Origin: a virus
Virus record (IMG/VR): IMGVR_UViG_3300032286_001377
Location: 51,552 to 115,551 of that record
Length of the DNA stretch: 64,000 nt
Strand: one strand, 5' to 3'
The translations under genes and the position numbers were made by a program. Each line of letters starts with the position of its first letter. The stretch's first letter is position 1. This document shows, in pieces, positions 20,501 to 51,796 of this stretch. The notes below the pieces were generated by a model, which saw only the letters and a program-made list of their open reading frames with translations, was not told the origin of the DNA and made no database searches.

Positions 20501-23500
20501 TTCTGAATAATCTTTACTAGGATTAGAAGAACTAGAGCCACCGCCACCACCATAGTCTGAGCCAAATAATATCGCAAATTCATCTTGGGCGCTATTATTT
20601 CCTGCCCCAAAGTACTTAAATGGATCATTAACATCTTGACCAGATATCATGTTACTAAATTCTGGTGGAAATTCTTCTTCTAAATCTGGATCTAATCCAT
20701 AAACATCAAAAAATATTCTTTTAACACTTTCATAGTTATGATATTCAGCCCTGAAATAGTCCCATATATCTTGCGCTTCTCTATTTGTTCTACCATTACC
20801 GGCAATAACGCTAACGCTAGTGTCAAAATTTTCGTCAAAATAACTTCTTGCCTGAATACTAACAATATCTGAAGGATCATAAACGGCAGAGAAGGACGTT
20901 CTTACATCCTCTGCTTCTCTCCTCTTTTTAAGCTCTTCTGATGTCAGAGATGCAGTATCTTTATCTATTGCTAGTTGAAAATAACTTTTACCATCTTTAA
21001 CATTTAAAGCATTTCCGCCAAACGCAAGAGCATCTATCGCAGATTGAAATTCTGAATTATAGGGAGCATACCAATCAAAAACACTATTTGATTTACCTAT
21101 TGCATTAACTACATCTATTGCTTCGCTGCCTATTTCTCTAGCAATATAATCTTGTCCCTCATTGATTTTAAAATTTCCAAACCCAACTATATACATACTT
21201 TCACTTTCCGCTACAGTATCCAACTGATCTTCAGTAGCGGCATTTTGTAATTTAAACTTATTAATAGGAAGAACTGTAGTGCTTATGACTCCGACTGGAA
21301 TATCATCTGGAACAAATGAGAACATACATTCTTGAGGTATAGGTGCAGTCCTATATCCTGAATCTAGCTCTGCAAAAAATTTAATTCTATTAAAACCATT
21401 GACATTAAATGTCGCCTCATCTGCTTGTAACATTGGGAAATTCAATGCATCAAGTGTAGAATCACTTTTCTCTAAAAGTCTTTTTGCTTCAGCAGAGGTA
21501 TAAGTTATAACACTTAAATAGAACGCTGCATCGGGGGAGACTAAAGCCGATAATTCATTGCCATCAATGTAGTTTGCATCAGAATTAGGAATAACGGCTT
21601 GAATATCTGAAGTGAGATTTTCTTTACCCCACATGAAATATGCTGGCTTGCAAACAACAGCTCTACCATTGTTAGGGTTATAGACAAGAACTTTACGTTT
21701 TTTATAATCTTCTGCAGTACCGTATAGATTAGTGAATCCATATTCTGATTTAAATTTACTTAGTGTGGCATCGTCTGCTTCGCCAGAAGGATTGTATGGC
21801 CATTTCATAGCAATGTAGAATTGTTCATCTTCAGGAGTTTCTGGAGCGCCCCACTCTCGATATGTTAGCTCTCCATAATTGTCTTTTTGATATTCAAAAC
21901 TAAATGAATCTGGATCATCATTAATCTGTTGAATAGATATATTACCACTTAAACCACCTTCAGACGTAAGACCTATCTGTGGTAGTGGCATAATAATTTT
22001 TTGATCCTCAATTTGAATAATGCCCTCTATCTGATCATAGAGCGGAGAAAAATCCAATGGTGAATCAAAGTTCACAGTACCCTCTATATCCCCTCCGACA
22101 GAGGGCATCAGTGAGAACTTAGTTTTTGCATAGAAGTCTAACTCTAAATTAATAACATCATCTAAACCATGATAAGTATTAGCGTTAACCCCCTCTTGCA
22201 ACACTACCCACCCCTGCCTCATTTTAACTGTGCTGGAGTTCTCTAATTTATATTTTTCAGTTACCGTAAAAAATGGAAAACCATACCTTGGTGGCAAATT
22301 GCCTATCTGCTTGTGTAAAGTCTTTTGACTTTCCATAGTAGATTCTGTAAAGAAGGCCTCACTATTTGAAGCTTTCATGTCCCTAGTTATAATTGGAAGG
22401 TGAGGGCCAATGCCAACCATACCTTTGCTAACTGGAAGTCTTGCAGATATTTTTGCTCCAGATTCTAAATCAAAATATTGATAAGCCTGTGGAGAATAAA
22501 AGTTAATTAATCTACCAGTAAAAAATTTAGTAGGAGAATAAATACCAGTAGATTCTGTTATCGCTTTTGAAACAGTTTGAAATGATTCATTAGGTTCAAA
22601 TGACTGAAAGAACTTCGCGTAATCTGCCAAAGGATTACTATCCTTATTTATTGTTTCTAAAATAGTATTTAGAACTTCATCTGGCCCTAGAGGTCTTGGC
22701 CCTGAAGAGGTTCCATCTTCTCTAGCTTTTTTCTCTCCAGAAAAACCAGTAGTCACTGGAACTACACCTGAAGTGTAAAGCCAATGTGGTTTACCATAGA
22801 ATACGGTAGACCTATCCTCAAATGGGCGTACCGCAACAATATAATTAGGAAGTAATCTTGCACAAATTTGGAACATATCCCAAACAGTTCTCATATATGT
22901 TTGTGCCCTAAATGATACCTCGTCAAATCCTGGAAGATCATCATCAGCATTAGGTGCAAGTATGCCCATTGTTTTAAAAATACTAGTTCCACCACGACCG
23001 CTCAACACTCCAAGTAGGCCAAGACCAGCAAGTGCGCCAGCAGCTGGGCCAGCTAAAGCTGCAGTTATGCCAGTCATACCAATACCTATCGCACCCTGAA
23101 CAAGGCCCGACCTGCCCTGAGCTTGAATTAGCTTATTGGATGCTGTTAAGTTTTCAATTGTTTCTTTGGCTGAAGAATCATTTTGCTGATACTTTTCCAT
23201 CAACTTATTATAGGTTATATCGGTTAACCTACCGAGATATCCTTCAGTTCTATCATTATATGATTCTTCGGGAACTAAAGATGATGCCGTAGACCAGCCA
23301 TCATCAATATCCCCTCCCATGAACTGTGCAATTCCGAGACCGTTTCCAGCATAGATGTTTCTCTTAAATATCTCAAGATCTGTTTGAGCGCTGAAGTTAG
23401 CCCACAATTGTCCAATAAGAGGAACAATGCCACCTCTTAAATTTGAAGAAAATCCCTCTGGTACAGACTGGCCACCACCAATATAGGTGAATGCTGCGCC

Positions 23501-26500
23501 AACTTTTTCTCTAATCCCGGCATTTTTGGCTGCTTCATCAGGATTTAATGGCTCATAAAGAACATTTCCAAAGTGTTTAATGCCAAACTTGTTTTCAGAA
23601 AAAATAGTTCCCCTAGTTGCATGAGCGAAAGCTTCTCTAGTTCTAGACGAACCCATAGACAGCAGTCTAACCATTAGATCTCTTGGCTCAGACATATACA
23701 TTCCAGTGTCTACGCCACCATCTATTTTTCCACTATCGCCTTTTTGCTTAGTTGAGTTAATCACGGCACCAAGTTCAATCGCATCAGATTGAGCTGTAAC
23801 TGTAACTATTTCTCCCTGCTCAACATTTGTAATAACACCATTAAATAATGTCTGCAGGGAGTTAGGATTAGCTCCGTATCCACCCCTTAAGTGAACTCGT
23901 ACTCCAGGCTTTAGTCTAATGTTAGCTATATCAACAATGTACTCATTTCTTAATCCAGATAAAACATTTCTGGACATATTAATAGCTCGCTCTACGATAC
24001 CTTGAAGCCCCTCAGATAAACTTAGTGAGTCAGTATTCATAGAATCGCCATCTGTAGAAAATATCGATGATGATTCTTTTTTTGTTAATTTAGAATAAAG
24101 ATTAGAAAGTCTAAATATTAAAGTGTCACCCAAAAGGTCTTCAGAAGATACTACAGAAAAATCTATAATAGATTGTAATCCATAGAAATTATCAAACATT
24201 TTAACGCCAGCAAAATATCCACCCTCATCAATAAGCCACAACATATAAGTAGGGAAAGCTCTAATCATTCTTCCAGATATATCCCTATATCTAGTATCTA
24301 CTAACATTGTCTCCCAATGAGTATATGCATTCTTGTTATGCGGTTTCTGATATCCTGACAAAGGAGTCACTCCACCAACTCCGGTAGTAGACTGTGTTGT
24401 GCCTTTATCTGGGGTTTGGGTATCTTCAATAAGATTAGCTTTAAGCTTATAACTAGATGTATTTGACCCACTGGTTACATTATCTCCAGCCAATGTTAAA
24501 TAGAATCTTCCAGTAGTCTTATCAATATATCCAAAATGAGTACCCAATGCTGTATGCATAATGGCGGGCATTCTGTTCGGTGATTCATTATTGGGATCAG
24601 AAGAAGGAATGATAAATATCTGCTTATGGAAATCTACCTCATCAGGATGAAAACTCACCTCATCCTCAACAGCAACCACTTGTTCGTTGCTATCATATAT
24701 TTGCTGATTATACTTACCTTCTAATGCGGCCTCTATTGAAGATAGCATCGCATAGTCATTAGGAGACACGTTTCCTACTTGATATGACGCAGGATTGACT
24801 TCCAGCATAAAAAAGGGATCATCCTCACCATTAGCTGGGTCTAAAGATATAAAATCAGTTAAAAGTTTTAGTTCAGTATCTTTATTGGCTTTACTTTCTT
24901 CTCTATTTATAATTTTATAAAAAATTCTAACAAAATCTTTTTTAGATATATTTTCAACTTTAAGATAATCAACCATCTGATCCAATAAATCAGCATTACT
25001 TCGAAGTGTGGCGGAATCGTTCGGATCTATATTATAAAGTCTTATAAAATCTAAAATTTTATTTGAGATTTGGCTTTCTTTTGCAGCCCTAGCAGGGCCG
25101 TCCATTCCATCCATTCCAGTCAAACTTGGATCTTCAAAATAATAATCTTGAATTTTTGGAGTCTGATCAGTAATGTTATTGATAACATCATTGTCAAACA
25201 TTTCAAAACTTCTAAAGTAGAAATCTGGATCTAGACATCCTACAGTTTCACCTACGTCATTTTTAATAAAAAGTGGAAAATCCGGATAAGCATTAAACGA
25301 TCCCCAGAGCTGCTTTATTCTTAAGAATGGATTCTTCTTAGTTCCAAATTCTTCAACCAATTGCGCCTGTTGTCTGCTACTTAATTCTTCTCTCTTTTGT
25401 TGGAAGATATCAAAATCTATCAAAGTAAGCTCAACATCATATATATGAGGAAAATTAGGCTTAGTGCTTACATTATAAGTGAGCGGCATTACATACTTAA
25501 TACCAGCTAAAGCTGTTATAATATTTTTAATCCCTAGAAATCCAATAACACCGGAGGCGTGTTCTAATCTAGCTAAGCCAGAGATGTGATCAAAAAGACT
25601 TCTAAATTTGATTAACTCTTTTTCGCCAACAACAGTCATTGATATATTTATAAAGCTATCTTTACCGCCAATATGCTGATAGGTTGGCTCATCTTGCATC
25701 TGGACTTGTAGCTTAACAAGATTATTTGCCAAAGAAACAGTAACACCATTAATAATTACTGCCTCTGGATCAAGATCCATTCTCACCATTGGAACTTCCC
25801 ACTCATTAAATTGGAAAGCCCCTGTTCGTGCTCTTGCAGCTTCCATTAGCGATTGAATTGGTCCACTCTGGAAGAATCTCTGATATATAGCTACATTAAA
25901 TGCGCGTGAAACTTCACCTTTGACCGTATCTCTATCTGGATATTTGCCATTTCTATAATATTGATCATTATATTGCTTATCTACTAGATAATTTAGATAC
26001 TCCTGAGGATTATTGGAAATAGCTTGGAAACCTCTTTTAATTGAATTTAAAGAAGTACTATCAATAAACTTTCCTTGAAAGCGATATAATTTTGTTTGCG
26101 GATACTGAGTTGTATCCGAATTTTTATTCTTTAACCACTCTTTTTCTTCATCAGTTAAAGTATTCTCTCCAATAAAATTAGCAATCAAGAAATCGTAAGA
26201 CTTATCTTCCATTGATTGAGAGTTAGATCCGGCGGTAATCATGTTTATTTCATCTAATATAATCTTATTAATAGATTTTGAATAAGAATTATTCAATGAA
26301 ATATCAATAGTTTCCGCCAATGAAATACCATAAGAAGCTGTTTGATTAATATCAATACCGATAGAATTCAGCAACCCCTCCCATGCAGACTGTCCAAGAT
26401 CGGTAAACATCTTTTCTTGCTCAGTTCTAAATGAAGAGGTACTAGGAAGAAATAGTTTAGTCTGAGATTCGGCGGGTGCAAATAAAGTTAGGTGATTGCC

Positions 26501-28588
26501 ATCTTTCCATTGATCAATAATATTTGTGGTAAGTGTTCCAGAAATTACATCATCTGAAGCATTAGTTGTTGGAGCAGGTGGCGGCGGAGGAATATAGGCA
26601 GTATCTCCAGGACCAAGCGCTCCCACAGGGCGATACTCAAAACCATTATAAACAACCTGATTAGAACTTAAATTGGCATCTTCGATAGTAGTTTGACCAG
26701 TTTGATCAATCTCCTTTACATCAGAAGTTTTTAATAAAAATTCTTCATTAACATATTGATTAAGCTGACCAGCTGCCTTACCCATATATTGTCTATATTT
26801 ACCCCAATGTATAGCCTGATTAAAATCAGATATCATCGGTAGAAATGGTTTGTGATTATAGTTAAGCAATTCTAGATCTACTGAAAGTGCAAAAGGGAAA
26901 TTTGGTATAGTTGAAATAGTCATATTGGCTAAACCGACTGCTGTAATACCATGCACCGAGTTAAGATAATGGCTCTTTACCGGAAGAATTGGCGAATATT
27001 TAAAGGCTGCAATGAGACCTCTTAAAGATGATAAAAATTTATCAACTTTTTCTTCTGAATCGCCATTCATTTTAAAATCAATTTTGAATTCTTCATTTAA
27101 TTTCAACGTAGCTGCATTATCTATTGATATTCCCCAAATCTCTTCGTAGTTAGGGAAAAATAATCTCATTCTAATTGTAGTTTCACGATATCCAGAATTA
27201 AACTTTGGACTATTCTTTTGACGAATAGCTCCAGGCATCATCGATCCAGCTTTAAAAGATGAGTTTACATCTATGGATACTGGAGGAACATAGAAATTAG
27301 CGGCTCCTAATCTTAGATGAAATATATCCGGATTTTCTGGAGAAATATTTGGTCTAAAAGGAGACTTTCTAAGAACTTCTTCTATTCTTTTTGATGTCTG
27401 CATACCTCTAAAAGCCAAGGTAAAAGAAGCTTTTCCATCGGCACCAACGCCGAATGCCCTTTCTAAAGAATCAAGAAAAGCTTCCTCATTATTAACTATA
27501 TCCTCCTGTCCACCACCTTTTCCATAATTTGAATAATCTCCAACTAAAGCTAGCGCATCAAAAATAAAAGTAACTAAACTTGGAAAATAATAATTTAGAT
27601 TGGCAAAGAAGATAGAATCTCTTTTTAAAAAAGTTATAATTTCATTAAGCAGTAAAAGCCATGGTGTGTCAGCAGTTTCTGAAATTGAATCAGCTGCAGA
27701 TTTTTTTATAGTAGCAAGATTTGCTGTTCGCCTTTTTCCATAACTAGCAATATCTGCTGCATACCCGGCGAGCGTTAATATTCCTATTTCTTCCATTTTC
27801 TGAAAAAGAGAATTTGTAGAAGCATTGCTTAATCCACCCGCTTCGGCAGGATTGATTACTGCTGCATTAACTTTTTGAAATACTCTGAAAAAAGAATTAG
27901 TCTGAGCTGCTGTGGGATCTCCATTAGGGAATGCTGTTGCATAAATATCATAAAAGTAACTTCTATCTACTGAATCATATTTAGAACCAAATGATTTTGC
28001 ATAGAAGGCGAGAACATTTGCTTCACCGACAATACTAGGAGTAAGATCAACCGAACTAGTTACTGGATTCTCAGATTGAGCAACTACTTCTTGAGTAATA
28101 AGTTCATCTATATTGAATTCAACGAATTTACTACCGAGATAGTAGTCTCTCCAAATTTTCAACCGCAAAGATGCTCTAACGCCATACACTCCAATTGATG
28201 CACTATCGGTGAAGATATAGCGATTGTTATAAAAGTCAGACCTTACTTCAGCTAAGGTAGATGGAGTAATGTTTCTATTATAAGAAGTCTTTACTTTTGA
28301 AATATAAGCAGAAATTATAGCTGGAGATATAATTGGATCACTAACAAATACTGATAAGCAGGCGTTAATAGCATCTACTGCGAACGCATCATTTTCATCG
28401 AGCTGAATAACCTCACTCCCGGTAAACCCATAAAGATCGGGGATATCAGAGGTACCATTAATGAATGATAAAAGATCAGATTCCTTATATGGAACATCCA
28501 GCATATAGAGCGCGAATACTTTATTATACAGAATATCCGCGCTGACAAAGTTAACTAGGAAACCTTTTGTAGTGTTATTTATCGACAT
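17564..28588 (-). CDS. Giant baseplate hub protein (gp27/GpD-like), 3674 aa, with C-terminal thermonuclease-like domain
   Basis: LKPGVRVHLRGGYG...LFNGVIT and GELLVIGNGDIRPHDLVYL...GIFEVEQVIHHF..GFITSI are hub motifs. VLDGDTI...RVRFDGINAAE is an SNase motif. It precedes the hydrolase and spike genes. Confidence 0.72.
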   Translation of the reverse strand: MSINNTTKGFLVNFVSADILYNKVFALYMLDVPYKESDLLSFINGTSDIPDLYGFTGSEVIQLDENDAFAVDAINACLSVFVSDPIISPAIISAYISKVKTSYNRNITPSTLAEVRSDFYNNRYIFTDSASIGVYGVRASLRLKIWRDYYLGSKFVEFNIDELITQEVVAQSENPVTSSVDLTPSIVGEANVLAFYAKSFGSKYDSVDRSYFYDIYATAFPNGDPTAAQTNSFFRVFQKVNAAVINPAEAGGLSNASTNSLFQKMEEIGILTLAGYAADIASYGKRRTANLATIKKSAADSISETADTPWLLLLNEIITFLKRDSIFFANLNYYFPSLVTFIFDALALVGDYSNYGKGGGQEDIVNNEEAFLDSLERAFGVGADGKASFTLAFRGMQTSKRIEEVLRKSPFRPNISPENPDIFHLRLGAANFYVPPVSIDVNSSFKAGSMMPGAIRQKNSPKFNSGYRETTIRMRLFFPNYEEIWGISIDNAATLKLNEEFKIDFKMNGDSEEKVDKFLSSLRGLIAAFKYSPILPVKSHYLNSVHGITAVGLANMTISTIPNFPFALSVDLELLNYNHKPFLPMISDFNQAIHWGKYRQYMGKAAGQLNQYVNEEFLLKTSDVKEIDQTGQTTIEDANLSSNQVVYNGFEYRPVGALGPGDTAYIPPPPPAPTTNASDDVISGTLTTNIIDQWKDGNHLTLFAPAESQTKLFLPSTSSFRTEQEKMFTDLGQSAWEGLLNSIGIDINQTASYGISLAETIDISLNNSYSKSINKIILDEINMITAGSNSQSMEDKSYDFLIANFIGENTLTDEEKEWLKNKNSDTTQYPQTKLYRFQGKFIDSTSLNSIKRGFQAISNNPQEYLNYLVDKQYNDQYYRNGKYPDRDTVKGEVSRAFNVAIYQRFFQSGPIQSLMEAARARTGAFQFNEWEVPMVRMDLDPEAVIINGVTVSLANNLVKLQVQMQDEPTYQHIGGKDSFINISMTVVGEKELIKFRSLFDHISGLARLEHASGVIGFLGIKNIITALAGIKYVMPLTYNVSTKPNFPHIYDVELTLIDFDIFQQKREELSSRQQAQLVEEFGTKKNPFLRIKQLWGSFNAYPDFPLFIKNDVGETVGCLDPDFYFRSFEMFDNDVINNITDQTPKIQDYYFEDPSLTGMDGMDGPARAAKESQISNKILDFIRLYNIDPNDSATLRSNADLLDQMVDYLKVENISKKDFVRIFYKIINREESKANKDTELKLLTDFISLDPANGEDDPFFMLEVNPASYQVGNVSPNDYAMLSSIEAALEGKYNQQIYDSNEQVVAVEDEVSFHPDEVDFHKQIFIIPSSDPNNESPNRMPAIMHTALGTHFGYIDKTTGRFYLTLAGDNVTSGSNTSSYKLKANLIEDTQTPDKGTTQSTTGVGGVTPLSGYQKPHNKNAYTHWETMLVDTRYRDISGRMIRAFPTYMLWLIDEGGYFAGVKMFDNFYGLQSIIDFSVVSSEDLLGDTLIFRLSNLYSKLTKKESSSIFSTDGDSMNTDSLSLSEGLQGIVERAINMSRNVLSGLRNEYIVDIANIRLKPGVRVHLRGGYGANPNSLQTLFNGVITNVEQGEIVTVTAQSDAIELGAVINSTKQKGDSGKIDGGVDTGMYMSEPRDLMVRLLSMGSSRTREAFAHATRGTIFSENKFGIKHFGNVLYEPLNPDEAAKNAGIREKVGAAFTYIGGGQSVPEGFSSNLRGGIVPLIGQLWANFSAQTDLEIFKRNIYAGNGLGIAQFMGGDIDDGWSTASSLVPEESYNDRTEGYLGRLTDITYNKLMEKYQQNDSSAKETIENLTASNKLIQAQGRSGLVQGAIGIGMTGITAALAGPAAGALAGLGLLGVLSGRGGTSIFKTMGILAPNADDDLPGFDEVSFRAQTYMRTVWDMFQICARLLPNYIVAVRPFEDRSTVFYGKPHWLYTSGVVPVTTGFSGEKKAREDGTSSGPRPLGPDEVLNTILETINKDSNPLADYAKFFQSFEPNESFQTVSKAITESTGIYSPTKFFTGRLINFYSPQAYQYFDLESGAKISARLPVSKGMVGIGPHLPIITRDMKASNSEAFFTESTMESQKTLHKQIGNLPPRYGFPFFTVTEKYKLENSSTVKMRQGWVVLQEGVNANTYHGLDDVINLELDFYAKTKFSLMPSVGGDIEGTVNFDSPLDFSPLYDQIEGIIQIEDQKIIMPLPQIGLTSEGGLSGNISIQQINDDPDSFSFEYQKDNYGELTYREWGAPETPEDEQFYIAMKWPYNPSGEADDATLSKFKSEYGFTNLYGTAEDYKKRKVLVYNPNNGRAVVCKPAYFMWGKENLTSDIQAVIPNSDANYIDGNELSALVSPDAAFYLSVITYTSAEAKRLLEKSDSTLDALNFPMLQADEATFNVNGFNRIKFFAELDSGYRTAPIPQECMFSFVPDDIPVGVISTTVLPINKFKLQNAATEDQLDTVAESESMYIVGFGNFKINEGQDYIAREIGSEAIDVVNAIGKSNSVFDWYAPYNSEFQSAIDALAFGGNALNVKDGKSYFQLAIDKDTASLTSEELKKRREAEDVRTSFSAVYDPSDIVSIQARSYFDENFDTSVSVIAGNGRTNREAQDIWDYFRAEYHNYESVKRIFFDVYGLDPDLEEEFPPEFSNMISGQDVNDPFKYFGAGNNSAQDEFAILFGSDYGGGGGSSSSNPSKDYSEAIEFMRKNYIDAPLDEGGLLSYFNNIFSKNLAKIYESFFAGESVLSVLHFSIEASNKDDNAVIDVSDILKKNIKTPKQLFLLMVGLFRQRLWEDPYARAWLVLKPDKKAGWFSADDGWSFKPVDKVFRAYIDPNSDYAKPSKKAKFLQLLVSTRGEGNSSNTYFSEVVSDVSEFASRTIGPIVSAVGDALSGLISMFKTTMQQLGYALSEVGNFKKQANILNKALNDSIYYSLGRPGTLLRAVDNPFTREYGEPVVEIREPFQRIHYISSFSHILSNQIQENLNNVATQITAVSDGKYPVTVALDKGAPAERQVEKTVETGLYFDNIVGSGFTGFLHPLMHPMETFRGVAKAIQGAPDELSARRVALSHLKESIKDIYGGELLVIGNGDIRPHDLVYLSDVYERMYGIFEVEQVIHHFTPELGFITSITPNALVTVNDPARWFMTSWMQSWMHVQNVRNDARIYIDNIRNANSGLSFGGNISVDRLGEILTTQIVGGFQFTHGSSALVKDIMANQTAMIAPGVNSSLLNAAGQEEGGGVPTFAIMAQVLPGIGQLVWKGWKWVRDNVLDQHGCYVQYLNKNGQPMDAGLSYNQGMVVGQHHSKALLPGILGTRVKARTPEGNSFIRSDDLFKSLGWNEVAINDIYRHISYESALVHAQVLKLSGLGPEKAGFEWQFRVICQVNSVLDGDTIDVTDIISGVNFRVRFDGINAAETNTIQGTVDYPSSTNPTNLSFLDISTPGGKAKVFVKKALENKLIVLRINQTRTEGSNAIGGKAVLEQDFEAGSQLNTIQNYQLDIFGSGDRENEGDVTGSRVMATIFYYLPQEKIDNILSYVANLFRSNLTALESIKDKLKNDIYDKSAFFTKFDSIFESVESIINDEYFNIQNDADSLYLLTDDQRKLYSRFVYFKVLEEIYDKASEWPRVSWDEYFPDGHPVTLNWELVVNNLAKVFVKDLQKESSSVIDANDSLPMPTSVSN

Positions 28589-29049: not shown

Positions 29050-32000
29050 TCAATAAGACGACGCCAAAGAACCATAAGGATTACGGCCAACATCAGCAAT
29101 CCTGTTATACATAGTAGTGGAAATATTACCGTTAACGAGTCCACCAGCTTGTTTGTTAAATTCTGAAACTGATTTCCTATCACCATATAAAGATACATTA
29201 TAATTTATACCAGGATTATACCCACCCATATCTGGAGATCCAAGATTCGGGATCCTAGTTGGCATCCCACCTTCATAGGCTGAACCTCCAGGCAATAACG
29301 GTGGACCAGACATGTCATCATGAGTCCTATTCTTATAGGCCTTATATGCAAAGCTACCAACTATTAAAGCTGACATGCCAATAAGTCCTTTCTTCATTCC
29401 AGGACTACTAATTAAATCAAAATATTTGCCACCTTCTTGAATATCCTTAAGGGCAAATCTTTTATATTTTGCGGGAGTAAACATAGTTGGAACTGCGGAC
29501 TCCCCTATGCCAACAGATTCAATCATTTCTTTTTCAATACGAGCAAGATCTGGAGCACCGACTGTTTGCGCTAAGTCTGAAATAGTCCCTTGCGCATCAA
29601 GCCTCTGAGATACACTAGCTAAATCTTCCGCTACATCAGAAAAAGGAGATTTGATCCCTTCTGCAGAAAGTCTTTCGTATTCAAGCCTAGCTCTTACAAC
29701 ATCCGCTTGCTGAACAGCTTGTTGACGGGCGGCATTATCAGTTATCTCAGAACTTCTTTCCGAAAGAGCCTTCAATGTATTTGACTGAAGATCCGTCAAA
29801 GTAGTACCAGAACCTGGAGCTATCAATGCGTCAGCAACATCTTTAAGATTGTCAGCTTTAAGTTTATTAGCTGGACCGTGACCCATAATTGACAAAACAC
29901 TTTGTGCATTGGCTTGATCCAAACTACGAAGATGATCCAATCTTCGCAACTGCCTATTTGCCATAATATCAAAATGTGTCGCAGCCGCCGTATCACTCAT
30001 GGAATCAACGCCTACTGCTTCTGCGACAAACCTTAACGCACCAATATCAAAACCGGCCTCTGCACCAAGTTTATCCAAAGCGTTAAAAAGACCTTTCTTT
30101 TCAACACCTGAAACCTGAGAAGCTGCATGGATATCACCAAGAACATTTTCTCCAATCTGATTTATCTTAGCAGTCCAGTTATACAACTCTAAAGCCGAAC
30201 CCTCCTTCAGAACCTTAGATGTCATTGCTGAAACGGTAGCTAGATCTTGTCCGTGCTTCTGAACAATATACCTAGCTAAAGAATCTTCTGCCACAGATGA
30301 CTGGGCTAATGCAAGCACTGGATTAGATTTTAGGCCAGTAAGCCCCTTTTTTCTTATAGTATCTAAATATACATCAGTCTGCCTTGCCAGATAATCTAGT
30401 TTAGATAAACTAGCAAAAGCGTGATCTCTAGAGAGAGCAACATTTTTCATTAAAACATCTTCTATTTGTTTATCATCTCCAACTAAAGCCTTTTTGTACT
30501 GCTGCAACTCTGCTTCAATATCGGCCCTAGCTGCTACAGCTTGAAAAGCGCCAGAAGAAGTGCCTTGCATAGCATCTTCCATTCCGGCAATAATATCTTC
30601 CAAAAGCCGTTGTCTATCTCCAGCGTTCATTTTATTCTTAAGAAGAAATTCGTCAATCCCGGCAATGGTGTTCTGATTTGTGGAACCAATAGCTCTAGTA
30701 AAGCCAATTCTCCTTCCAAGAGAAGAGATTGCAGCTTCGCCAATCGTATTCAAACTCACGGCAGATTTTGTGCCAGCTGTTTTATATAAATCAAGAATCG
30801 CCTTACTAACTTTAGTTTCATCCAAAACTCCCATATTGTTAGTAAGATATTGTTGAACTCCAAGATTGACAGTTTTAGAAGTAGACAAGTTAACTGTTAA
30901 GTCAATGCCTTCTTCCTGAGCAATCAGACCTGCACTATAATTTATATTCTCTGGATTTAAAAGATAGTCACGCACAGATTGGCTAGCATTCTCCAGAAAG
31001 GCAGAATACTGATCCAGTGTTGACCCAACAATCCCAGATCTATTAACATACATTCCAAGGTTGCCGGAATTTTGTTCTATTTTTTTCAAAGTCATTTTAT
31101 CTAACGCCGAAGCAATCAATGCGCTAGATTCTCTACTGTCGGAATGATTCGCCAAGACCTCTAGCATAGAGTTGAAATCAGTAGCGGAACTAAGGCTTGA
31201 TCTTAATTCATTGCTGATATTAGGTGATGCAAGTAAGCTTTGAATATCTTCTGACATATCAAACTTCGCACCAGACTCTAAAAATGCCTTATATACACCT
31301 CTTTGAGTATACTCTGGTATAATTTTTTTTCCAGATTTATCAACCAAATCTGTTAACATCAAAGTAGAACTACCCGACTCAGCGAACCTGGCCATTCCTT
31401 CTCTAGTTAAAGTGTATGAATTTCCAACTCTTTCAGATACTGCCACAATAGCTGACTCAATTTCATCTGGATTTTTTATTCGGAGAGTTCTATTTCCTTT
31501 TGTTGGAGTGAATTCTATAACATCTTGCAACTGTGCGAATTTTGCTGCATCAGCGCCAGTAATATTATTTTGAGCATTTTCTTGCATGATGGCTGCTAAT
31601 GCATTTTTAAACCTATCATTACCAAACATACTTTTGATTGATTCTTGGTCCATATTCATTCTCATAAAAATAAATTCTTCTGGACCTGATGGTTGACGGA
31701 AAGATAGAAATCCAAGTCTTTTCATTCCAGCGCTATCTTCAAATGTAACAGTTCTTGCTATACCTTTATCGTCTAGGTCGAATCCACCAAGAGAGTGATG
31801 GAATTGACCAACAGCTATATTAGGAATAAACATTGTATGACCTTTAATTCTAAACTTTAGAGCATCTGTGGACATCCTGTTTCCGCCACTTCCAAATAAA
31901 TCTAAAGTCTCAAAACCATATGAACCATTTCTGCTATTTCCTAAAAGATACCCTGCATCCGTGGTGCCCATCAGTCCTCTTTCGGTATTGATGGCAAACC

Positions 32001-34035
32001 TATGTGTCTCAGGAAGTGCTGGCTCAAAAAAGGACACACCGTTACCATATCCTTTTTCTTTGAAAGCCATAGTAGCAGTTGCTGTATGTAGCAAACTCAT
32101 CAAATATGGAGAATCCTTTGGACTGGCTCCAGAGTGGAGCATGTCCATAATAGATTGGGCAAACTCTTTATTTCTAGCTCCAGAAAGTCTCTTGCTCACT
32201 GGAAGAGATTCAATATCAGCGGATGCCTGATATTCTAACATTTTTCTTAACTTTTCCGGAACAATTCCACTTTCAATCGACTCTCTGAATTGTTGAACAA
32301 CCTCATCTTGATTTCGTTTAATTATATCTATGCTTCCAGGATCAGTGAAAAGTTGAGCATTAAAAGCTGCAGCAACGGGATCTACATAAACAGTTTCATT
32401 TTTTCTACCAATACCACTTAATATAAGACTTTCTATATCACCAGCTATTCCAGATTCACCCTTTACGGAATGTCTGCTTATAACCATTGCGTAACCTTCA
32501 AGATTTGGATCAAATTTACTATCTAATCCAAAAGCGTTTTTGATATTAAGAAACCTATCCACTGCTCCAGTATAAGTTCTTCCTCTGCCAGTCACCTGAG
32601 AATAATCGCCAGATGAAAGTCTGGCTATTTTATCATCTAACTCACTCATTATCGCTAGAGCTTTTTGCTTTTTGTGCGCATCAGAAGTAGATCCAAGCTG
32701 TGTGGCTATATCCTTTTTTTGAGCTCTTAATTGAGCTATGTATGTATTTAAGAATTTTTTATTCATTATATCTGCACCATCGAAAGACTTTTCAATACTC
32801 TCAAAAAGACCTTCAATAGCTGCAGAACGAGTAGCAGATCTGCTAGGATCAGAAACAGCAAAACCTGCTTTTAAATGCTCTTTAAGTTCCTTGCCTAAAA
32901 ATTTGTTTCCAGTACCACCAGGAAAATTAGTTATTGCTTGTTGAAGTTCAGATGTCTCAGATTGAGTAAGTGCATTTTCGGTAAAACTACCTAAAATACC
33001 TCTAACCTCTTTATCTGCGTTCATGCTCTTATAATAGGCTTGCAAAGCTTTATTGCCATCAAAATTATAATGTCTTCCATGAGCAAACTTTTTCAAAATT
33101 TCATATTCAGGATCAACAAATAAAGTTATATCCGATAACCTGCCTGATTGACCTAGTTTTGATTTAGTGCTTTTAGAAAATTTTTTAACCAAATCAGAGA
33201 GTTCATCTCCGGCCAAAGATATCTCTCTTGGGGCCAAATATGCTCTTTGTCTCTTTCCTATTTTTTCTACCATTTTAGCCAAAGCTTCACCAGTTCTTTC
33301 GCCAGTTGAACTAGGCCCCAGAGCATCAAGAAGATCTCCTTCATCATAAAATCCGTGACCGGTCATTGATAAAATAAGATTTGTTTGATATGTATCTAAA
33401 GATTTTCCACCATTAACTAAACTCAATATTCTCGCACCTTCATCGTCTGGCATAACAATTCCATCAACCATTCCAGATTGTTGCATTCTTTGAATTTGAG
33501 CAATTAACTCTGATGGAGAACCCTTCTTCTCCATTGTGTAAAGTCTTAGTTCAAGGTCTGAAAGATCTCCAACATTTATATTCGCTTTTCTTAAAACTTC
33601 TAAGTCATCAGAAGAAAGACTCCGCAGCTTTGTATGCATGTCTTCAAATATATTTCTTGCCGCACCATAGTTATCTGAAGATCGCGATGCTCTTTCCATG
33701 GCTTTACTTAAAGAGTCTGGAACGAAAGAAGTTCTCTTTCCAAAAACTTTTACATCAGCGATAGCCATCTGATTCACCTCATCGACGGCGTCTTCCATTG
33801 TATCCATTTTTTGACCTGTTGTGGCTATAACAAATTTAATCTTAGAACCAGGATCTGTTGACTCTGGTTCCAGTTTAATAAGACCACCTCTACCGTATGG
33901 AGTAAGTTTAAGTGCAGCTTCTGCTGCAGACATCCTTTTAGCTAAAGTATCATAAACTGTATTCACATTAAAAACAGGATTACTCAACCGTTCTCTTTTG
34001 CGAAATTCTCTAATAACATCTTTAATATCTCTCAT
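29050..34035 (-). CDS. Tape-measure-region protein, 1661 aa; candidate divergent single-chain two-barrel (virion) RNA polymerase
   Basis: Motif series FDG(419), QVTGR..K(499), SVK(525), MLHSGASPKDSPYL(632-645), GGFDLDD(750-756), FRQP(779-782), NLGMYVN(992-998), GID(1045); C-terminal hydrophobic helix. The CDS itself is certain; the confidence refers to the RNAP call. Confidence 0.55.
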   Translation of the reverse strand: MRDIKDVIREFRKRERLSNPVFNVNTVYDTLAKRMSAAEAALKLTPYGRGGLIKLEPESTDPGSKIKFVIATTGQKMDTMEDAVDEVNQMAIADVKVFGKRTSFVPDSLSKAMERASRSSDNYGAARNIFEDMHTKLRSLSSDDLEVLRKANINVGDLSDLELRLYTMEKKGSPSELIAQIQRMQQSGMVDGIVMPDDEGARILSLVNGGKSLDTYQTNLILSMTGHGFYDEGDLLDALGPSSTGERTGEALAKMVEKIGKRQRAYLAPREISLAGDELSDLVKKFSKSTKSKLGQSGRLSDITLFVDPEYEILKKFAHGRHYNFDGNKALQAYYKSMNADKEVRGILGSFTENALTQSETSELQQAITNFPGGTGNKFLGKELKEHLKAGFAVSDPSRSATRSAAIEGLFESIEKSFDGADIMNKKFLNTYIAQLRAQKKDIATQLGSTSDAHKKQKALAIMSELDDKIARLSSGDYSQVTGRGRTYTGAVDRFLNIKNAFGLDSKFDPNLEGYAMVISRHSVKGESGIAGDIESLILSGIGRKNETVYVDPVAAAFNAQLFTDPGSIDIIKRNQDEVVQQFRESIESGIVPEKLRKMLEYQASADIESLPVSKRLSGARNKEFAQSIMDMLHSGASPKDSPYLMSLLHTATATMAFKEKGYGNGVSFFEPALPETHRFAINTERGLMGTTDAGYLLGNSRNGSYGFETLDLFGSGGNRMSTDALKFRIKGHTMFIPNIAVGQFHHSLGGFDLDDKGIARTVTFEDSAGMKRLGFLSFRQPSGPEEFIFMRMNMDQESIKSMFGNDRFKNALAAIMQENAQNNITGADAAKFAQLQDVIEFTPTKGNRTLRIKNPDEIESAIVAVSERVGNSYTLTREGMARFAESGSSTLMLTDLVDKSGKKIIPEYTQRGVYKAFLESGAKFDMSEDIQSLLASPNISNELRSSLSSATDFNSMLEVLANHSDSRESSALIASALDKMTLKKIEQNSGNLGMYVNRSGIVGSTLDQYSAFLENASQSVRDYLLNPENINYSAGLIAQEEGIDLTVNLSTSKTVNLGVQQYLTNNMGVLDETKVSKAILDLYKTAGTKSAVSLNTIGEAAISSLGRRIGFTRAIGSTNQNTIAGIDEFLLKNKMNAGDRQRLLEDIIAGMEDAMQGTSSGAFQAVAARADIEAELQQYKKALVGDDKQIEDVLMKNVALSRDHAFASLSKLDYLARQTDVYLDTIRKKGLTGLKSNPVLALAQSSVAEDSLARYIVQKHGQDLATVSAMTSKVLKEGSALELYNWTAKINQIGENVLGDIHAASQVSGVEKKGLFNALDKLGAEAGFDIGALRFVAEAVGVDSMSDTAAATHFDIMANRQLRRLDHLRSLDQANAQSVLSIMGHGPANKLKADNLKDVADALIAPGSGTTLTDLQSNTLKALSERSSEITDNAARQQAVQQADVVRARLEYERLSAEGIKSPFSDVAEDLASVSQRLDAQGTISDLAQTVGAPDLARIEKEMIESVGIGESAVPTMFTPAKYKRFALKDIQEGGKYFDLISSPGMKKGLIGMSALIVGSFAYKAYKNRTHDDMSGPPLLPGGSAYEGGMPTRIPNLGSPDMGGYNPGINYNVSLYGDRKSVSEFNKQAGGLVNGNISTTMYNRIADVGRNPYGSLASSY

Positions 34036-37000
34036 CGCACTCCAGCAGAAACGCTAATTTGTTGCGAGCCGAATGGAGTACTCACAGGCGTAATGGTTCC
34101 AGTAACCCCGGTTCCAGCCATCAGTCTTTCCAATCTAGCCCTAATATCTCCTCTACTACTAGTACCAAAGAAATCTGGATAACTGGCATTTGCGAGATTT
34201 GCTTCCTTGATTTGCTGCGGATAATATCCCATTTGAGACATATCCAATCCCATATGCTGGCCTGTTTTAATTTTGACTTGATCTAAGTTAGTATTAGGAT
34301 TCCAGCCTTCCCAATCTTCACTGGGGAGTTCATGACTAGTAAAGTATTCATCCAAATCAGGAAGTTTTTCAACATCCATACCCCAAGCTGCTTCGTACAT
34401 TCTTCTCTCAAGTCTTCCAGCGGTTGAAAGTATTTTTCCTCTTTCCTGAACTGGTGCGTCCATCATTGCCTTAAAATGTTCTCTTTTACGTTTTGGTAAA
34501 GCGAATGATAGATTTTCAACATTAGGATTATCAATATTTGCACCATACATGGTACGTCTAGCAGCAGATCTAAACTGAGTGGCAGCTGCCATATCACCAG
34601 AAGCTGAAGCCATATTAGCAAGTCGGGTGTTCTTAACATAACTTAAGATATCAGAATATTCCTCAAGAGCTAATTCTTCTTTCCTTTTCTTTGGAATATA
34701 TCTTTCTCCAGAAATAAACTCCTGAACCTTTCCGCCAGTTGATGACAAAGCACCCGCTGCACCTCCGACAACAGTACCAAAAAGTTTTGCTCTTGGAGTT
34801 CTACCGAAAAAGGCACCCGTTGTTGCTAACGCTGCAGATGCAAGAAGTGGATTCCTTTGAGTACTTTCTTGCAACATTGGTTTAATGTAACTTTCTACCG
34901 GATTCTGCCATTGCGGGAAAGTAGTTCCATAAACGTTGCTTCTCTCCCAATCCTCTAAGGCCGTTCTTTTTCCAATAGCTTTTGTTAAGATAAAGTTATC
35001 GGAGTGAGCTAGCATCTCCCCAATTCTTCCCATCCCAAATTTAATTGGATGCATCGCAGCTTCTTCTGGGCTTGAATACTTATATTTATATTCAGAAAAA
35101 TCATGACGTACAGTCGTATCTTCAGCTTGCTGTCTAATTGTAGCAACTTCGACTTTTTCCTCTGGAGTTAAAGCCTTTTTATTTATTAAAGAATTAACTC
35201 GTTTGAACTGCTGCGAATATGGTGCAACATCACCAAGAATATTTAACTGATCTATTAATCCATATCTTCCAGTTTCATCTGGATGTAATTTATTAAATCT
35301 TTCATAAGCTACACCAGGAAGTCTTAATTCGCCTTCTTGAACTTTAGTAAAAGGGTCTCCAGTTCTAAAGTTCATATAATACTCTGCGCCAGGAAGCCAT
35401 GGATTTTCTTTACCCATCCTATTTTGAATAGGATTTAAGTAATCTACACCAGTTCTATCTTTTGGAATAAATCTTCTAACTATTTCAGAAAATTCAATAT
35501 TACCAATACCTTCAGATCCGCCAATTGGAACGTCACCTAAACCACCAAGATTTAAATCCCAGAATGCTCTAGATGAGCCATAAGCTTTACTAGCAGACTG
35601 TAAGACTGCTCTTTGTGGATCTAAATCAGATTTTCCAAAACCCAAACTTTCACGAGCAGATCCGAAAGCAAAACCATAAATACCTAACATTTCTTGAGCG
35701 CGATATCCTGCTTCGGTTGCTTGAAATTCACTTCTTCCCGGCATGAGGGGGGTTCCGGAAGGTACAATTCTAGGATTCATAACCTTAGAAACTTTAGGTG
35801 GACCATAGGCTAGTTGTGAATATCCAGAGTTTATGTCTGAAATCTTATTTCTTGTCATGCCTCTTGCCATAAACGTGCTACCGGCACGTGATGCCATATC
35901 ACTATTGTATTGTCCTTGGTATCCGCCACCGCCAAATCCAGACGATCCACCACCAAAGCCAAATCCACCTCCATATCCACCACCTCCATATCCGCCACCG
36001 CCGCCATATCCTCCGACTTGCGTGCTAGATGTATACGCAGTAGCATCATATGCTCCAAACTGACCTGCAGGAGCATAAGAAGCTAATCCTGCTGTTAATT
36101 CTTCTCCGTGCATGATCTTTTGTGGTTTTAGTATTCTTCCTAATGTAGCATTTGCGATAGGCACGAGGGGTCCAAATGGGCCAGAAAAATATTCTCCAGT
36201 TACAGGATATGGTCTATCTTCATAATGCTTGCGTTCAAATCTATAAGGATCTAATGGTCTCAATGGAGAAATATCATTATCGAACAAGAATTTTTCAGCC
36301 GGACTACCATATGTATCGCTGGTAAACATGGCTCCACCTTGAAGTTTTCGATACCAAGATGGGCGATAATACATAATCTTTCCGCCCTTAAAAGGAGTAT
36401 TTCCCAATGGCCAGAAGCGACCTTGCCGAATTGGAACCTCTCCCTCAACTAACTGTTCTCTTTTTTCCTGATAGCTCATTCCACCAGGAATAAGTCCAGC
36501 TGCAGCAGCGTGAGCTTCCACTCCAACCTTTGCAGCGGTGCCAAGAACAAGTGGAGAATATACCCTTTCTCCATTTTCATCTTTTTCATTGACCATTCCT
36601 CCCATTGTTCTGTCTATTGTCATAGCTGCGGTACCTGCCGCATATAATGGGAGAACTCTCTTTCCAGCCATTCCTCTAGCGAATAAATCTAGAGGACCAT
36701 TAAACTTGGATACATCTAACTGCATACCTAAAGTTCCGAAGTACCTGTTTAATCTTTCTACACCCTGAGACGCTGGAACGCTAGCTAATGAAAATGATTC
36801 TGGATCAGAATAAGTTGTAAGCCCTAACGCACTCTTTATTGCGCCCTGTGGATTTCTTCCAAATACTGTACCAAAGGTTGGAACTAAAGTAGTATATTGT
36901 CCAGACCCTAATGGATCAGTAGTCATGCTATCTGGCCTATATGGAGCCGTTCCAAATGCTCTTTTAGCTGGCGTTAAAAGAGGCGAAAATCTTTTTCGAA

Positions 37001-40000
37001 TCGATCCACCAATTTGAGCTATATCACCCTTAATGAATGGGTCATACAAACTTTTTGCACCGGGCGCTGAACTCAAACCCATAGCCTGAGTAATAGCTAG
37101 ACGGGCACTTTGAATGTTAGAGTCCCCCTGCTTATAGCTCATATAAGAACTAAGATTGAAAAGAGTACCCAACCCAGCAGCTTGTGCTTCAGTTCTCTGA
37201 GCTGGACTAATCGCACCAGACTTAACAAGATCATCTACTGCTGTCTGAATCTTTATAAAGATTTCATCTTTATTAACACTACCAGAAGTTAACTGATTTG
37301 ATTGAGCAATATATCTAAAAATTTCATTTTTTAATTCATCATATTTAGTAGAAATAGTAGGAGATTTTTGAGCCATCATCGAAACAGCACTTAGGTCAGC
37401 CTCATCCATTAGTCTACTCATTCTGGAAGCTGAAGAAAGAATTGGTGTTGGATCTTGCCCTGACGATCTCAATTGCCTAGCTAACTGAGACTGAGTTTTT
37501 TCAATTTGCCTACCAAAATCAATTAAATCCTGATGACTCTGTATCTCAGAAACGCCTTTGCCTCTAAAAGTAAATAAATCTGGAGTCTTATCTTCAAGCT
37601 CTTTCATCAACTTAACTGGCATCCCGGCTTCAGATAGTGTTCTATCTCTTAATGACGAATACGCCCTTATTAAATCAGCCTCCTGGAATCCAGAGATTAT
37701 ATTATTAGATCTATCTACAAGAGAAATAGATCCATCCGGCATCGTGGTCAACCGTCCCGAAGTTTTAGCAGCACCTCTCGCTCCTGGTATTGCAATTTCT
37801 TCTCCAGCCAACAATCTTGACATAACTTCAGGATTATATGGATCATAATTTCTTCTTCTAAATCGAGATAACTGACCAAAAATAGAATTAGGCTGATCTG
37901 AACTAACCGCCATTCTATCTCTAATCTTCAACATCCTATCTTGACCAGAAGGACTTAGTATTCTATTCAAAAAATTAGAATTTAATTCCTCCCTAATCTG
38001 CTCAGGATTCGCACCCTGCAGATCAGAGGCATAACGTGTATGCCTGGTCAGTAAATCCATAGCATTAGTCGGCAATGCGCGATAAGAACCCTTAAGAGTT
38101 TCACTAACTAACTCTCCAGTATTTTCATCAGTCCTAAAAGCAGTAACAGCGCCTTTCAATCCTTTAGTTCTATTGAACATATAGAAGTCAGGACGCACTG
38201 CCCCTTCTTCCAAAAATGGTTGCACAGATCTGGAAGAAATATATTGAACAGATGGTCTTCTATACATCTCTTTAAAAGAATTGTATCCAACAAGATCTGT
38301 TGGATTAAAACCTAAAATAGGAATCTTAAACTCTGATGCTAAAAAGTTACCAATACTAGACGCCGTTGACCTAAGAGCAGTGAAGTCAAGTATTTCACCA
38401 CGACCGCTCTTATAGACGCCATCTAATCTACTTAAGCCTATTGACTTTGAAACAGGGTCCTGAATAGCCATTCTTCCAGCAAGCTGTCGAATGATGGCCT
38501 GGTCTTCATCGGGAATATGTTTGAACATTCCACGATCTTGCGCCTCGTCAATTGTAACTTGCTGTAATCCAAAAAGATTTTGACCACCACTAAAAACACC
38601 TGATGTCATCTTCTTATTCTTAATCAAGAATGCACGCAAATCAGTAAAATTACTAGGATCTATACCACGATTTCTAAGCTGATCAAGAACCATATCATTG
38701 GTAACCATTTGACCATTTTGATGCGTCAGTTTAATACCTAATGTTTCAGCAGTTTTTCTCTGCATGAACTCTAGCTTTGCGTCGGTTGGCTCGCCAATGA
38801 AATCTTGATAAAGAGCTTTCTTTGGCTTTAAAATCCCGCCTGCAGCTTGATGCAGATCTTCTCTTTGGAACTTATTCCAAGAATTTGCAATACGATTATT
38901 TAAACGCTTTTGAAACTCCGTACTAGTGAAAGCATTTCTTGATCTTTCTATTGCATCAGCTAAAGCATCAGCGTTAAAGTTTGGATTCTCTACAAGATTT
39001 TTACTACCTTTTATTTGACTATATCTTTTGATTATCTGACCAAAAAAATCTTCAGATTCAGACTTAGCTGTCGAACCCTGCTCTAATATCTGAGCTTTTC
39101 CAATAGAAACAATCTTAGTCATATCGCTAGTTGACCCAGGTATAGATACCTCTAAATGCGCAATAAATCGTTCCGCGTCACGCTTATTGATACCTTTATT
39201 AATTAACTGTTTTTCAAGTAAATCTTTATAGGCGTCCGTTTGCATGCCATTATTAAATTGGCTCTTAGCAAATGTTTCAGAACCAGGGCCTCCACCACCA
39301 AGTATTCTAATATCTTTAGCTAAATTAGACAATCTTGATGAGTGCTGAGACTGAATCTTTTTAATAGATTCCGCTAAAGCATTCTGCCCATTATTGCCAG
39401 TAAAAATTCTAGAATTATCAATAACCTTCTTAAATGCCATAGGACTTTGCATGGCATCATAAGCCTCACCAAGGCCCTTAAATTCCTTTACGCCGACTGA
39501 TATAGCAGAACTGGTACCCCTGAAGGCGGGAATGAGGTCTATTGCTGAACCGTATTTTTGCTGTCCATCAGAATATCCTGTAAAAAGATTTTTAAATTGA
39601 GTCTTCCTCAACTCCGCTTTAGAGGAGTTGGTCAACAAAGCCTTCTCTTGAGCCTTATCCCACCCCGCCCTCAGGTTATGCAAGGTTTGAACAAAACCTG
39701 ATTCTTGCGTTCTAAATTCAGTAGCGGCAGCATTGAAAGCGCCAGATGTTTGAGCACCTTTTTTCAAAAGTTTATTTGTCAGAGAAGCAAAATCGTGACC
39801 AACTTCAGCGAGAACTTCAGATACGTTAACAAAATTCTGATGGAGCTTTTGCCTAGCCGGTGTTAAACTTCTAATATCAGACTCTGCATACTTGAGTGTA
39901 TGAATAGAACTTTTTAAAGTAGTTCCCGCCGCGCCTGCTGCCTCAAATGGAAGAATCATTGTAGTCATGGACTTTACTGATTCAGTAGTAAAGTCAGCAA

Positions 40001-51466: not shown

Positions 51467-51796
51467 TTAAACGTTTGATATTATAGTAATAGACAAAGAA
51501 CCAGCTGGTCCAAAGTCGGCTCCATTATTCATATCAATCACCGCATGAGCACCGTCTTTATCTATAGTTATACTTGCATTACCTATCGAATATGGATCAT
51601 CTTTTAATGAGGAAAGCGCATAAGCGGCAATGTTGAAAAGATCAGTCGTAGAGGTGCCAAACGCTGGAATATTAACTAATTCTAAAGTTGATACAGTCTC
51701 TGAGTTAACAACCAATTCCTCAGAGATAACAATAACTATACCATTATAAGTTACAAGAGGCTGGTTATACTTAATGATATCGTTATAAAATTTCAT
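51467..51796 (-). CDS. Hypothetical virion protein
   Basis: Tightly packed in the structural operon; YN repeats at the N terminus. Confidence 0.6.
   Translation of the reverse strand: MKFYNDIIKYNQPLVTYNGIVIVISEELVVNSETVSTLELVNIPAFGTSTTDLFNIAAYALSSLKDDPYSIGNASITIDKDGAHAVIDMNNGADFGPAGSLSITIISNV

Follow-up and report, generated by a model that had tools for sequence, protein, structure and literature searches.

To our knowledge, virion RNA polymerases fused to a tape measure have so far been known only from the Thermus siphoviruses of the P23-45 group. In P23-45, an active virion RNA polymerase (RNAP) is fused to the tape measure at its N-terminus to form gp96, in which residue 779 marks the Asp loop (Chaban et al., 2024, PMC10770324; PDB 8H2M/8H2N). 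A separate YonO-like polymerase that belongs to PF05183, gp99, is encoded by phage 0305phi8-36 (PMC7824862, PMC2147016). Here, we analyzed a stretch of 64,000 nucleotides (nt), called the window below, from the IMG/VR virus record IMGVR_UViG_3300032286_001377 (positions 51,552 to 115,551 of that record), in which a minus-strand open reading frame (ORF) at positions 29050-34035 encodes, without an internal stop, a protein of 1661 amino acids (aa). We favor, with moderate confidence, the reading that this is a virion protein in the tape measure slot, the first ~1100 residues of which are a highly diverged two-barrel RNA polymerase with a DxDD loop, and the C-terminal third of which is tape-measure-like. 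The protein probably works like the two-barrel polymerases and probably descends from them, but we do not call it a demonstrated member, because neither DxDxD nor the upstream RxP holds for it and no profile matched.

Like gp96, the 1661-aa protein has its putative polymerase core in the first ~1100 residues and is encoded at the tape measure position. The Asp loops lie at residues 779 and 753, respectively, a hydrophobic segment follows further along the chain, and the role proposed for both is that of an ejected protein responsible for early transcription at the entry pore. However, gp96 has a canonical DFDGD loop and an upstream RNP, whereas the protein described here has DLDD and a downstream RQP; gp96 comprises 5002 aa and belongs to a siphovirus with an 84-kb genome, as opposed to 1661 aa in a ~200-kb myovirus; P23-45 has a paralogous non-virion polymerase, gp64, in contrast to the single copy in the present clade; and the metallopeptidase domain of gp96 has no equivalent here. 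The best structural matches are provided by QDE-1 of Neurospora and plant RDR2, eukaryotic RNA-dependent RNA polymerases of RNAi, which have YonO and gp99 (PF05183) as phage relatives; the motifs GGxDxD(G)DK, [IL]GxxxN, and Q.xxID are shared with the gp99 family. Compared with this group, the loop is one residue shorter, RxP is displaced, and a helical insertion of ~170 aa precedes the bridge-like helix. In addition, gp99 is the product of an early-region, non-structural gene, whereas the gene studied here lies in the tail module and codes for a tape-measure-like C-terminus. Gp66 of phi14:2, a crAss-like phage, is likewise a single-chain two-barrel RNAP in a very large, ejected virion protein that is extremely diverged beyond the Asp loop (bioRxiv 10.1101/2020.03.07.982082), but it has a DFDxD motif, belongs to a podovirus, and is located outside the tape measure position. 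Finally, the N4-like virion RNA polymerases are giant injected virion proteins for early-gene transcription, the function proposed here, but they have an unrelated, T7-like right-hand fold, and PF00940 was not detected here.

The tape measure slot of the tail module

The window comes from an IMG/VR virus contig of 115.5 kb with an estimated completeness of 55%. Relatives of the portal, protease, capsid, sheath, tube, and baseplate proteins are found in the Bacillus jumbo myophage 0305phi8-36. From gp139 (sheath) to gp151 (gpJ-like), all 0305phi8-36 proteins but gp146 have BLASTP homologues here, in the same order, and the gp146 slot of this syntenic tail module is occupied by the 1661-aa ORF. 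The local order is chaperones (homologues of gp143 and gp144), the gp145 homologue, the 1661-aa ORF, a 146-aa ORF, and the baseplate hub (gp147 homologue); with the tail assembly chaperones on one side and the hub on the other, the gene is in the position of a tape measure. In 0305phi8-36, gp146 is the assigned tape measure and was detected in virions by mass spectrometry (PMC2147016). The virion and tail location proposed in an initial annotation of this DNA, made from the sequence, is thus backed by gene-for-gene synteny. That annotation had also considered the upstream 2213-aa ORF (34032..40673, minus strand) to be the probable tape measure; this ORF is instead a homologue of gp145, a virion protein (BLASTP to 2e-29, in several colinear segments), and the 1661-aa ORF holds the gp146 slot. 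The ATGA overlap between the stop of the 2213-aa ORF and the start of the 1661-aa ORF (34032..34035, minus strand) is real and suggests translational coupling of the two.

No significant sequence similarity was detected between the 1661-aa protein and gp146, and no known tape measure family was matched by it in Pfam or PHROGs. Tape measures are expected to be long and mostly helical; residues 797-1160 are predicted to be helical, whereas residues ~476-793 are beta-rich and globular. The C-terminal parts of the two proteins are alike in organization: in both, a hydrophobic helix is located ~115-120 aa from the end and is followed by a G/P-rich linker and then by a short conserved tail (Y.V..G...N.NIS..[FY]NR). 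A C-terminal hidden Markov model (HMM) of the family scored 3.6 bits against gp146, about rank 10 among 500 shuffles. Gp146 differs in length (2537 aa) and contains neither DxDxD nor DxDD.

In the C-terminal half of the 1661-aa protein, residues 1100-1545 (29401..30738; this and all following segments of the ORF are on the minus strand) are less conserved, putatively tape-measure-like, and predicted to be helical to residue 1160. The C-terminal hydrophobic helix noticed in the initial annotation exists and is conserved in the family: the lysine-flanked segment GLIGMSALIVGSFAY (residues 1550-1564, 29344..29388) has nearly invariant A1556, L1557, G1560, S1561, and Y1564. It is followed by residues 1570-1661 (29053..29328), where conservation is highest in the whole protein, with the pattern GPPLLPGGSAYE ... 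YNPG..Y.V.LYG ... NTTMY ... ASS[FY].

Conservation in the protein family

A word-indexed search yielded 52 relatives of similar length with 25-85% identity. When the core domain was used as the profile in an exhaustive search, 222 clusters (50% identity) were found at E ≤ 0.001, and in these the core domain is always located at about residues 430-830 of proteins of 1500-2100 residues; the architecture of the whole ORF, a tape-measure-slot protein with a polymerase-like core, is thus shared by ~222 clusters. In IMG/VR, 73 distinct loci on contigs of up to 216 kb have a common gene order, namely an ORF of ~2200 aa, an ORF of ~1600 aa, a small gene, and an ORF of at least 3100 aa.

The motifs listed in the initial annotation are each present once, at the residues given there: KSFDGADIM at 416-424 (D419), QVTGRG at 480-485, IKNA at 498-501 (K499), MVISRHSVKG at 517-526 (K525), DMLHSGASPKDSPYLMSLL at 631-649, SLGGFDLDDK at 748-757 (GGFDLDD at nt 31768-31788), FLSFRQPSGPEE at 776-787 (R780), GNLGMYVNR at 991-999, and LIAQEEGIDL at 1037-1046 (D1045). 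The Asp loop indeed reads D-L-D-D, and R-Q-P is located downstream of it. Conservation was counted in 118 full-length representatives of clusters at ≤50% identity. D753, D755, D756, R780, P782, E787, and D1045 are unchanged in all 118; N998 and G420 (117/118 each), K525 (116/118), and K499, D419, G750, and G994 (115/118 each) are nearly invariant. In contrast, the mean column identity of the family alignments is just 34-38%, and the conservation exceeds what chance would give. The residues singled out in the initial annotation are exactly the invariant ones, with the three aspartates of the DxDD loop and the R and P of RQP conserved in 118 of the 118 representatives. The pattern is of the active-site type and not of the ruler-protein type. 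The suggestion of a repurposed, inactive enzyme is unlikely, because the acidic and basic residues are absolutely conserved.

One subclade, represented by at least four independent samples, has a break in the gene at a common site, ~35 residues past RQPSGPEE (L025:12239-12325, L027:12200-12289, L033:12236-12364, and L036:12272-12358). The first ORF ends with ...LSNARR[LF] at a TGA, and the +1 frame continues as GDSEAGRLLLAL... with no obvious start codon. A programmed +1 frameshift could account for this, or else the protein may be divided in two, with ~770 aa for the barrels and ~815 aa for the tape-measure-like portion.

Comparison of motifs with gp99, QDE-1, and gp96

For a comparison with the gp99 family (gp99 locus, L078:36027-39683), 36 homologues were collected, all of which belong to PF05183, and 21 of them were aligned. 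The invariant residues of the gp99 family and of the 1661-aa family are colinear. The first-barrel arginine R293 of the gp99 family corresponds to R484, the two lysines K298 and K349 to K499 and K525, the triad D573, D575, D577 to D753, D755, D756, the G...N motif G632...N636 (IGEITN) to G994...N998, and I681-D682 (QGxxID) to I1044-D1045 (QExAID). The spacings are also similar, with 224 versus 228 residues from the second lysine to the first aspartate, 4 in both families from G to N, and 46 versus 47 from N to D. The loop sequences are MGGADTDGDK in the gp99 family and LGGFDLDDK in the 1661-aa family, the latter being one residue shorter. K499 and K525 would be the two conserved basic residues of the putative first barrel, and their spacing of 26 residues compares with 24 for K743/K767 of QDE-1.

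Predicted fold and structural matches

A first AlphaFold2 (AF2) model, of residues 380-1160, was mediocre, with a predicted local distance difference test score (pLDDT) of 65 and values below 50 around D1045. With this model Foldseek gave no match, and a helical hairpin dominated the VIA-align results. A second AF2 model, of residues 470-830, was based on 46 sequences taken from the IMG/VR loci and had a pLDDT of 77 and a predicted template modeling score (pTM) of 0.72. In this model, the beta region with K499 and K525 is followed by four helices and then by a beta domain of nine strands. Ahead of the Asp loop, this domain has a strand of 12 residues, a short one, and a helix; three more strands come after the loop.

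The second model was compared by VIA-align with 48,161 PDB representatives. Among the best 50 matches, QDE-1 (7y7p_A) was at the top and was the sole match with Z ≥ 5 (Z 5.3, root-mean-square deviation (rmsd) 5.2, 227 aligned residues, model 1-296 with chain 723-1020). ZmRDR2 (Z 4.6, 209 aligned), the non-virion RNAP gp62 of P74-26 (Z 4.5, 188 aligned), and P23-45 gp96 (Z 3.9, 133-135 aligned, chain 518-794 with residues 470-773 of the 1661-aa protein) were also in this set, the remaining matches were short and helical, and phi14:2 gp66 was absent. The alignments with the polymerases are colinear; they start in the beta region that bears the lysines and extend over the connector and the second beta region as far as the Asp loop. 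They stop just past the Asp loop of the 1661-aa protein and, in the targets, past the catalytic aspartates, which are the triad D1007/D1009/D1011 in QDE-1, where the lysines are K743/K767 (PMC9508822), and DFDGD 779-783 in gp96 (PMC10770324). The two-barrel polymerase-like core predicted in the initial annotation is thus tentatively supported by the second model, with QDE-1 at the top of 48,161 chains and RDR2, gp62, and gp96 in the top 50, albeit at low Z. The significance does not come from Z; it comes from the fact that the small family named beforehand supplies the best match as well as four others among the top 50, and that these have the longest alignments, which end past the catalytic aspartates.

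A second look by VIA-align at the Foldseek top 1000 gave helical matches and a weak match to the double-psi barrel of UFD1 (Z 2.6), and the ESM Atlas had no usable match. In BFVD, three uncharacterized phage proteins match the core model with Foldseek E values of 1e-7 to 2e-4, which is uninformative on function. These proteins (A0A6J5MEC6, A0A6J5M9G6, and A0A6J5NTF7) are from uncultured Caudovirales, have 851-1141 aa, and show 14-15% identity and a TM-score of at most 0.55. They may be more distant members that could bridge to the canonical polymerases.

According to the reading as a polymerase, residues ~400-1100 would form a single-chain RNA polymerase core with two double-psi beta-barrels (DPBB). 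The N-terminal region in front of the barrels (residues 1-469, 32629..34035) contains a conserved basic patch (K258/K261/R262), D419-G420, and a helical hairpin at ~421-474. The first barrel, with K499 and K525, would correspond to the first beta region (residues 476-545, 32401..32610; putative DPBB-B), which consists of strands in the model and includes Q480 and R484-G485. It is followed by a helical connector (residues 553-657, 32065..32379) with a conserved LHxSGxSPKDSP motif (G636, P643). The second barrel, with GGFD-L-D-D-K, would be the second beta domain (residues 658-793, 31657..32064; putative DPBB-A, model pLDDT 75-90), to which the weak UFD1 match applies and which carries R679, F728-R729, the Asp loop, and RQPSGPEE. 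Here, the putative metal-binding loop G750-G751-F-D753-L-D755-D756-K757 (31765..31788), with its three invariant aspartates, would be one residue shorter than the canonical GGxDxDGDK, and the invariant RxP...E motif R780-Q-P782-S-G-P-E-E787 is encoded at 31675..31698. In the secondary structure of the first model, a helical insertion (residues 797-966, 31138..31647) leads from the second barrel to a 39-residue helix (residues 967-1005, 31021..31137), the candidate bridge helix with L-G994-x-Y-V-N998-R (LGxYVN). The QExAID motif, Q-E1041-x-x-I1044-D1045 (30901..30918), 47 residues past N998, would complete the core.

Position of the RxP motif

The invariant FRQPSGPEE, 24 residues past the Asp loop, resembles FRSPLIHxSE of the gp99 family, TFRNP of gp96, and RNPxxHPGD of RNA-dependent RNA polymerases, all of which precede their Asp loops, RSP by 44 residues in the gp99 family and RNP by 38 residues in gp96. 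The RxP...E set of the gp99 family (R529, P531, E537) has its counterpart in R780, P782, and E787. No conserved RxP was found upstream of the Asp loop, where the region is variable and gapped in the alignment. This displacement, pointed out in the initial annotation, is real, and together with the missing RxP 35-45 residues upstream it speaks for a circular permutation of the catalytic barrel, with the RxP half placed after the Asp-loop half. However, four polymerases align with the protein in a colinear manner over the stretch between the first barrel and the Asp loop, and the local order of strand (12 aa), strand, helix, Asp loop, and strand in the model is canonical. Moreover, the upstream invariant residues R679 and R729 could serve the canonical role, and RQP lies after the second post-loop strand and not where a half-swap would place it. 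Because the alignments are colinear and the local strand order is canonical, the permuted barrel suggested initially is not supported, and we regard it as quite improbable. A relocated or convergent RxP element, or the use of R679/R729, would fit better.

Other polymerases and promoters in the clade

Four genomes of the clade (92-100% complete) contain exactly one copy of the gene each, and a search of five genomes for a paralogue that could be a non-virion polymerase found single copies only. In the four near-complete genomes, no gp99, PF05183, PF00940 (T7-type), PF00623 or PF00562 (multisubunit RNAP domains), or sigma-70 region 2 was detected; for PF05183 and PF00940 the absence is weak evidence, because the controls for both also gave nothing anywhere. 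The 36 metagenomic homologues of gp99 are found on contigs of 205-215 kb of the 0305phi8-36 lineage. This distribution is suggestive of a complementary, apparently mutually exclusive occurrence of the polymerase-like module and the YonO-like gp99 in different lineages, because 0305phi8-36 has gp99 and a gp146 without the motifs, whereas the genomes of the clade show the reverse. A k-mer search of the 115-kb contig revealed no long phage-specific promoter, just a short TTACTATAA-type motif in intergenic gaps.

Weighing the evidence

A number of results weigh against a polymerase core. The 1661-aa ORF has no Pfam match at E ≤ 0.1 and no PHROGs match, and phmmer and profile searches of PDB sequences with the protein and with two family alignments retrieved noise only. 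Hhalign against the gp99 (YonO-like) family of 21 aligned proteins gave a probability of 0.2 with no colinear sub-optimal matches; segment-wise hhalign pairs LGGFDLD with MGGADTD and QExAID with QGxxID, at scores within the null range, and none of the motif parallels with gp99 is significant at the sequence level. Smith-Waterman comparisons with gp96 resulted in p = 0.08-0.9 and in a rival register, TVYVDP/TVIVDP, and because of this alternative register the matching of motifs by eye is ambiguous. In place of DxDxD, all 118 representatives have DxDD, with the third aspartate one position earlier, and RxP is missing 35-45 residues before the loop. The K499-K525 region had low confidence in the first model. 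The structural searches of the second model diverged: VIA-align ranked QDE-1 best, whereas Foldseek against the PDB gave no match at E ≤ 0.001. Z values of 3.9-5.3 are low, below the best match often reached by unrelated models, and the rmsd is ~5 Å. Convergence of the invariant residues on one site is putative, and packaging of the protein in virions is proposed from synteny only. Further searches were also negative: the PF05183 profile did not match the 1661-aa protein, tblastn found no match in 50,697 phage records, and the family HMMs retrieved nothing from gp145, gp146, and gp99 of 0305phi8-36. The missing sequence similarity weakens but does not refute homology, because two-barrel families are generally without similarity beyond the Asp loop, as stated by the authors of the P23-45 study (PMC10770324).

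The protein could be an ordinary or unusual tape measure or ejection protein, in which the conserved residues serve another purpose, for example in a cell-wall-degrading, membrane-active, or assembly metal site, and the fold match is spurious. Hydrolase domains are common in tape measures, and lytic transglycosylases, MltA and RlpA among them, have double-psi barrels too. The slot and the tape-measure-like C-terminus agree with this explanation, as do Z values that are all ≤5.3, the silence of Foldseek, and the lack of sequence similarity to polymerases; indeed, P23-45 gp96 itself has a metallopeptidase (PMC10770324). However, no hydrolase family was found by Pfam or PHROGs or among the matches listed in the fold searches (MltA/3D and RlpA-like included), the top of 48,161 chains is from the family named in advance, with four more of its members in the top 50 and the longest alignments, and two lysines, three aspartates, G...N, and ID are colinear with a bona fide polymerase family at matching spacings. 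We therefore consider a mere tape measure or ejection protein unlikely.

It is rather improbable, in our view, that the protein is derived from a polymerase but does not transcribe and acts instead as a primase, a DNA polymerase-like enzyme, a maker of short RNAs, or a motor or guide for genome threading, with DxDD adapted to a modified chemistry. Such a function would be in line with a loop one residue shorter than in all characterized members, with the displaced RxP, with the helical insertion of ~170 aa that separates the second barrel from the bridge-like helix, and with the lack of a long phage-specific promoter motif in the 115-kb contig; the superfamily includes the DNA polymerase PolD and RNA-dependent enzymes (PMC10770324, PMC9508822). 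Conversely, all three aspartates and both lysines are conserved, as an active nucleotidyl transferase needs, and gp96, the nearest precedent at this genomic position, actively transcribes DNA as a DNA-dependent RNAP (PMC10770324). Furthermore, no other recognizable phage transcription polymerase was detected in the near-complete genomes of the clade.

Proposed role and implications

For the transcribing polymerase that we favor, the following role can be envisaged. The host virus would be an uncultured contractile-tailed phage of ~200 kb of the 0305phi8-36 lineage, with the protein residing in the tail lumen. The C-terminal third, with its helical region, hydrophobic helix, and conserved tail, would serve as an anchor, both within the tail and at the membrane. 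During infection, the protein would be ejected before the DNA, held at the envelope by its C-terminal part, and would transcribe the first genes of the incoming genome, as proposed for gp96 of P23-45. What the analysis shows is the conservation, the resemblance of the predicted fold, and the synteny; packaging, ejection, polymerase activity, and template specificity are steps that we infer. A more far-reaching possibility, which we put forward tentatively, is that an unrecognized two-barrel family with a rewired site (DxDD, and RxP...E behind the loop) has, in a large, widespread clade of contractile-tailed phages of ~200 kb, assumed the role played by gp99 in the sister lineage of 0305phi8-36 and works at the entry pore, where it couples transcription to genome delivery.

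If the reading as a polymerase is true, the solution known from P23-45 would also be used by a large environmental clade of jumbo-type myoviruses (~222 clusters at 50% identity, 73 IMG/VR loci), for whose proteins every current annotation is "hypothetical". The two-barrel superfamily would gain a new family, with a catalytic loop that breaks the "universal" DxDxD and thus bears on the variability of the two-metal site, and the reading would explain how transcription starts in phages without a recognizable polymerase gene. The 1661-aa family would be a direct test case for transcription-coupled DNA entry via a contractile tail.

Neighboring genes

The 2213-aa ORF upstream has a single N-terminal hydrophobic helix (residues 45-67), and its length is near constant in the clade (~2130-2250 aa); it may be the true length ruler. 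On the other side, the 146-aa ORF between the 1661-aa gene and the hub (28597-29037, minus strand) is composed of 22% Ser, 12% Asn, and 11% Lys, and no family match was found for it. The 3674-aa baseplate hub, the homologue of gp147 (17564..28588, minus strand; 3e-22), matches phrog_20474 ('endolysin') at 2e-119, has a weak match to an endonuclease PHROG near the C-terminus, and contains several glycine-zipper-like hydrophobic segments.

Two paralogous genes at 42825-43571 and 43645-44319 (minus strand) match phrog_9206, which carries the label 'major head protein'. Their homologues in 0305phi8-36, however, are the tail tube protein gp140 and its paralogue gp141 (1e-44 and 2e-39), and the label of phrog_9206 looks wrong in light of this relationship. 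Upstream of the window, positions 1-51551 of the record are nearly all minus-strand and include giant ORFs of 2089, 1835, 1107, and 877 aa.

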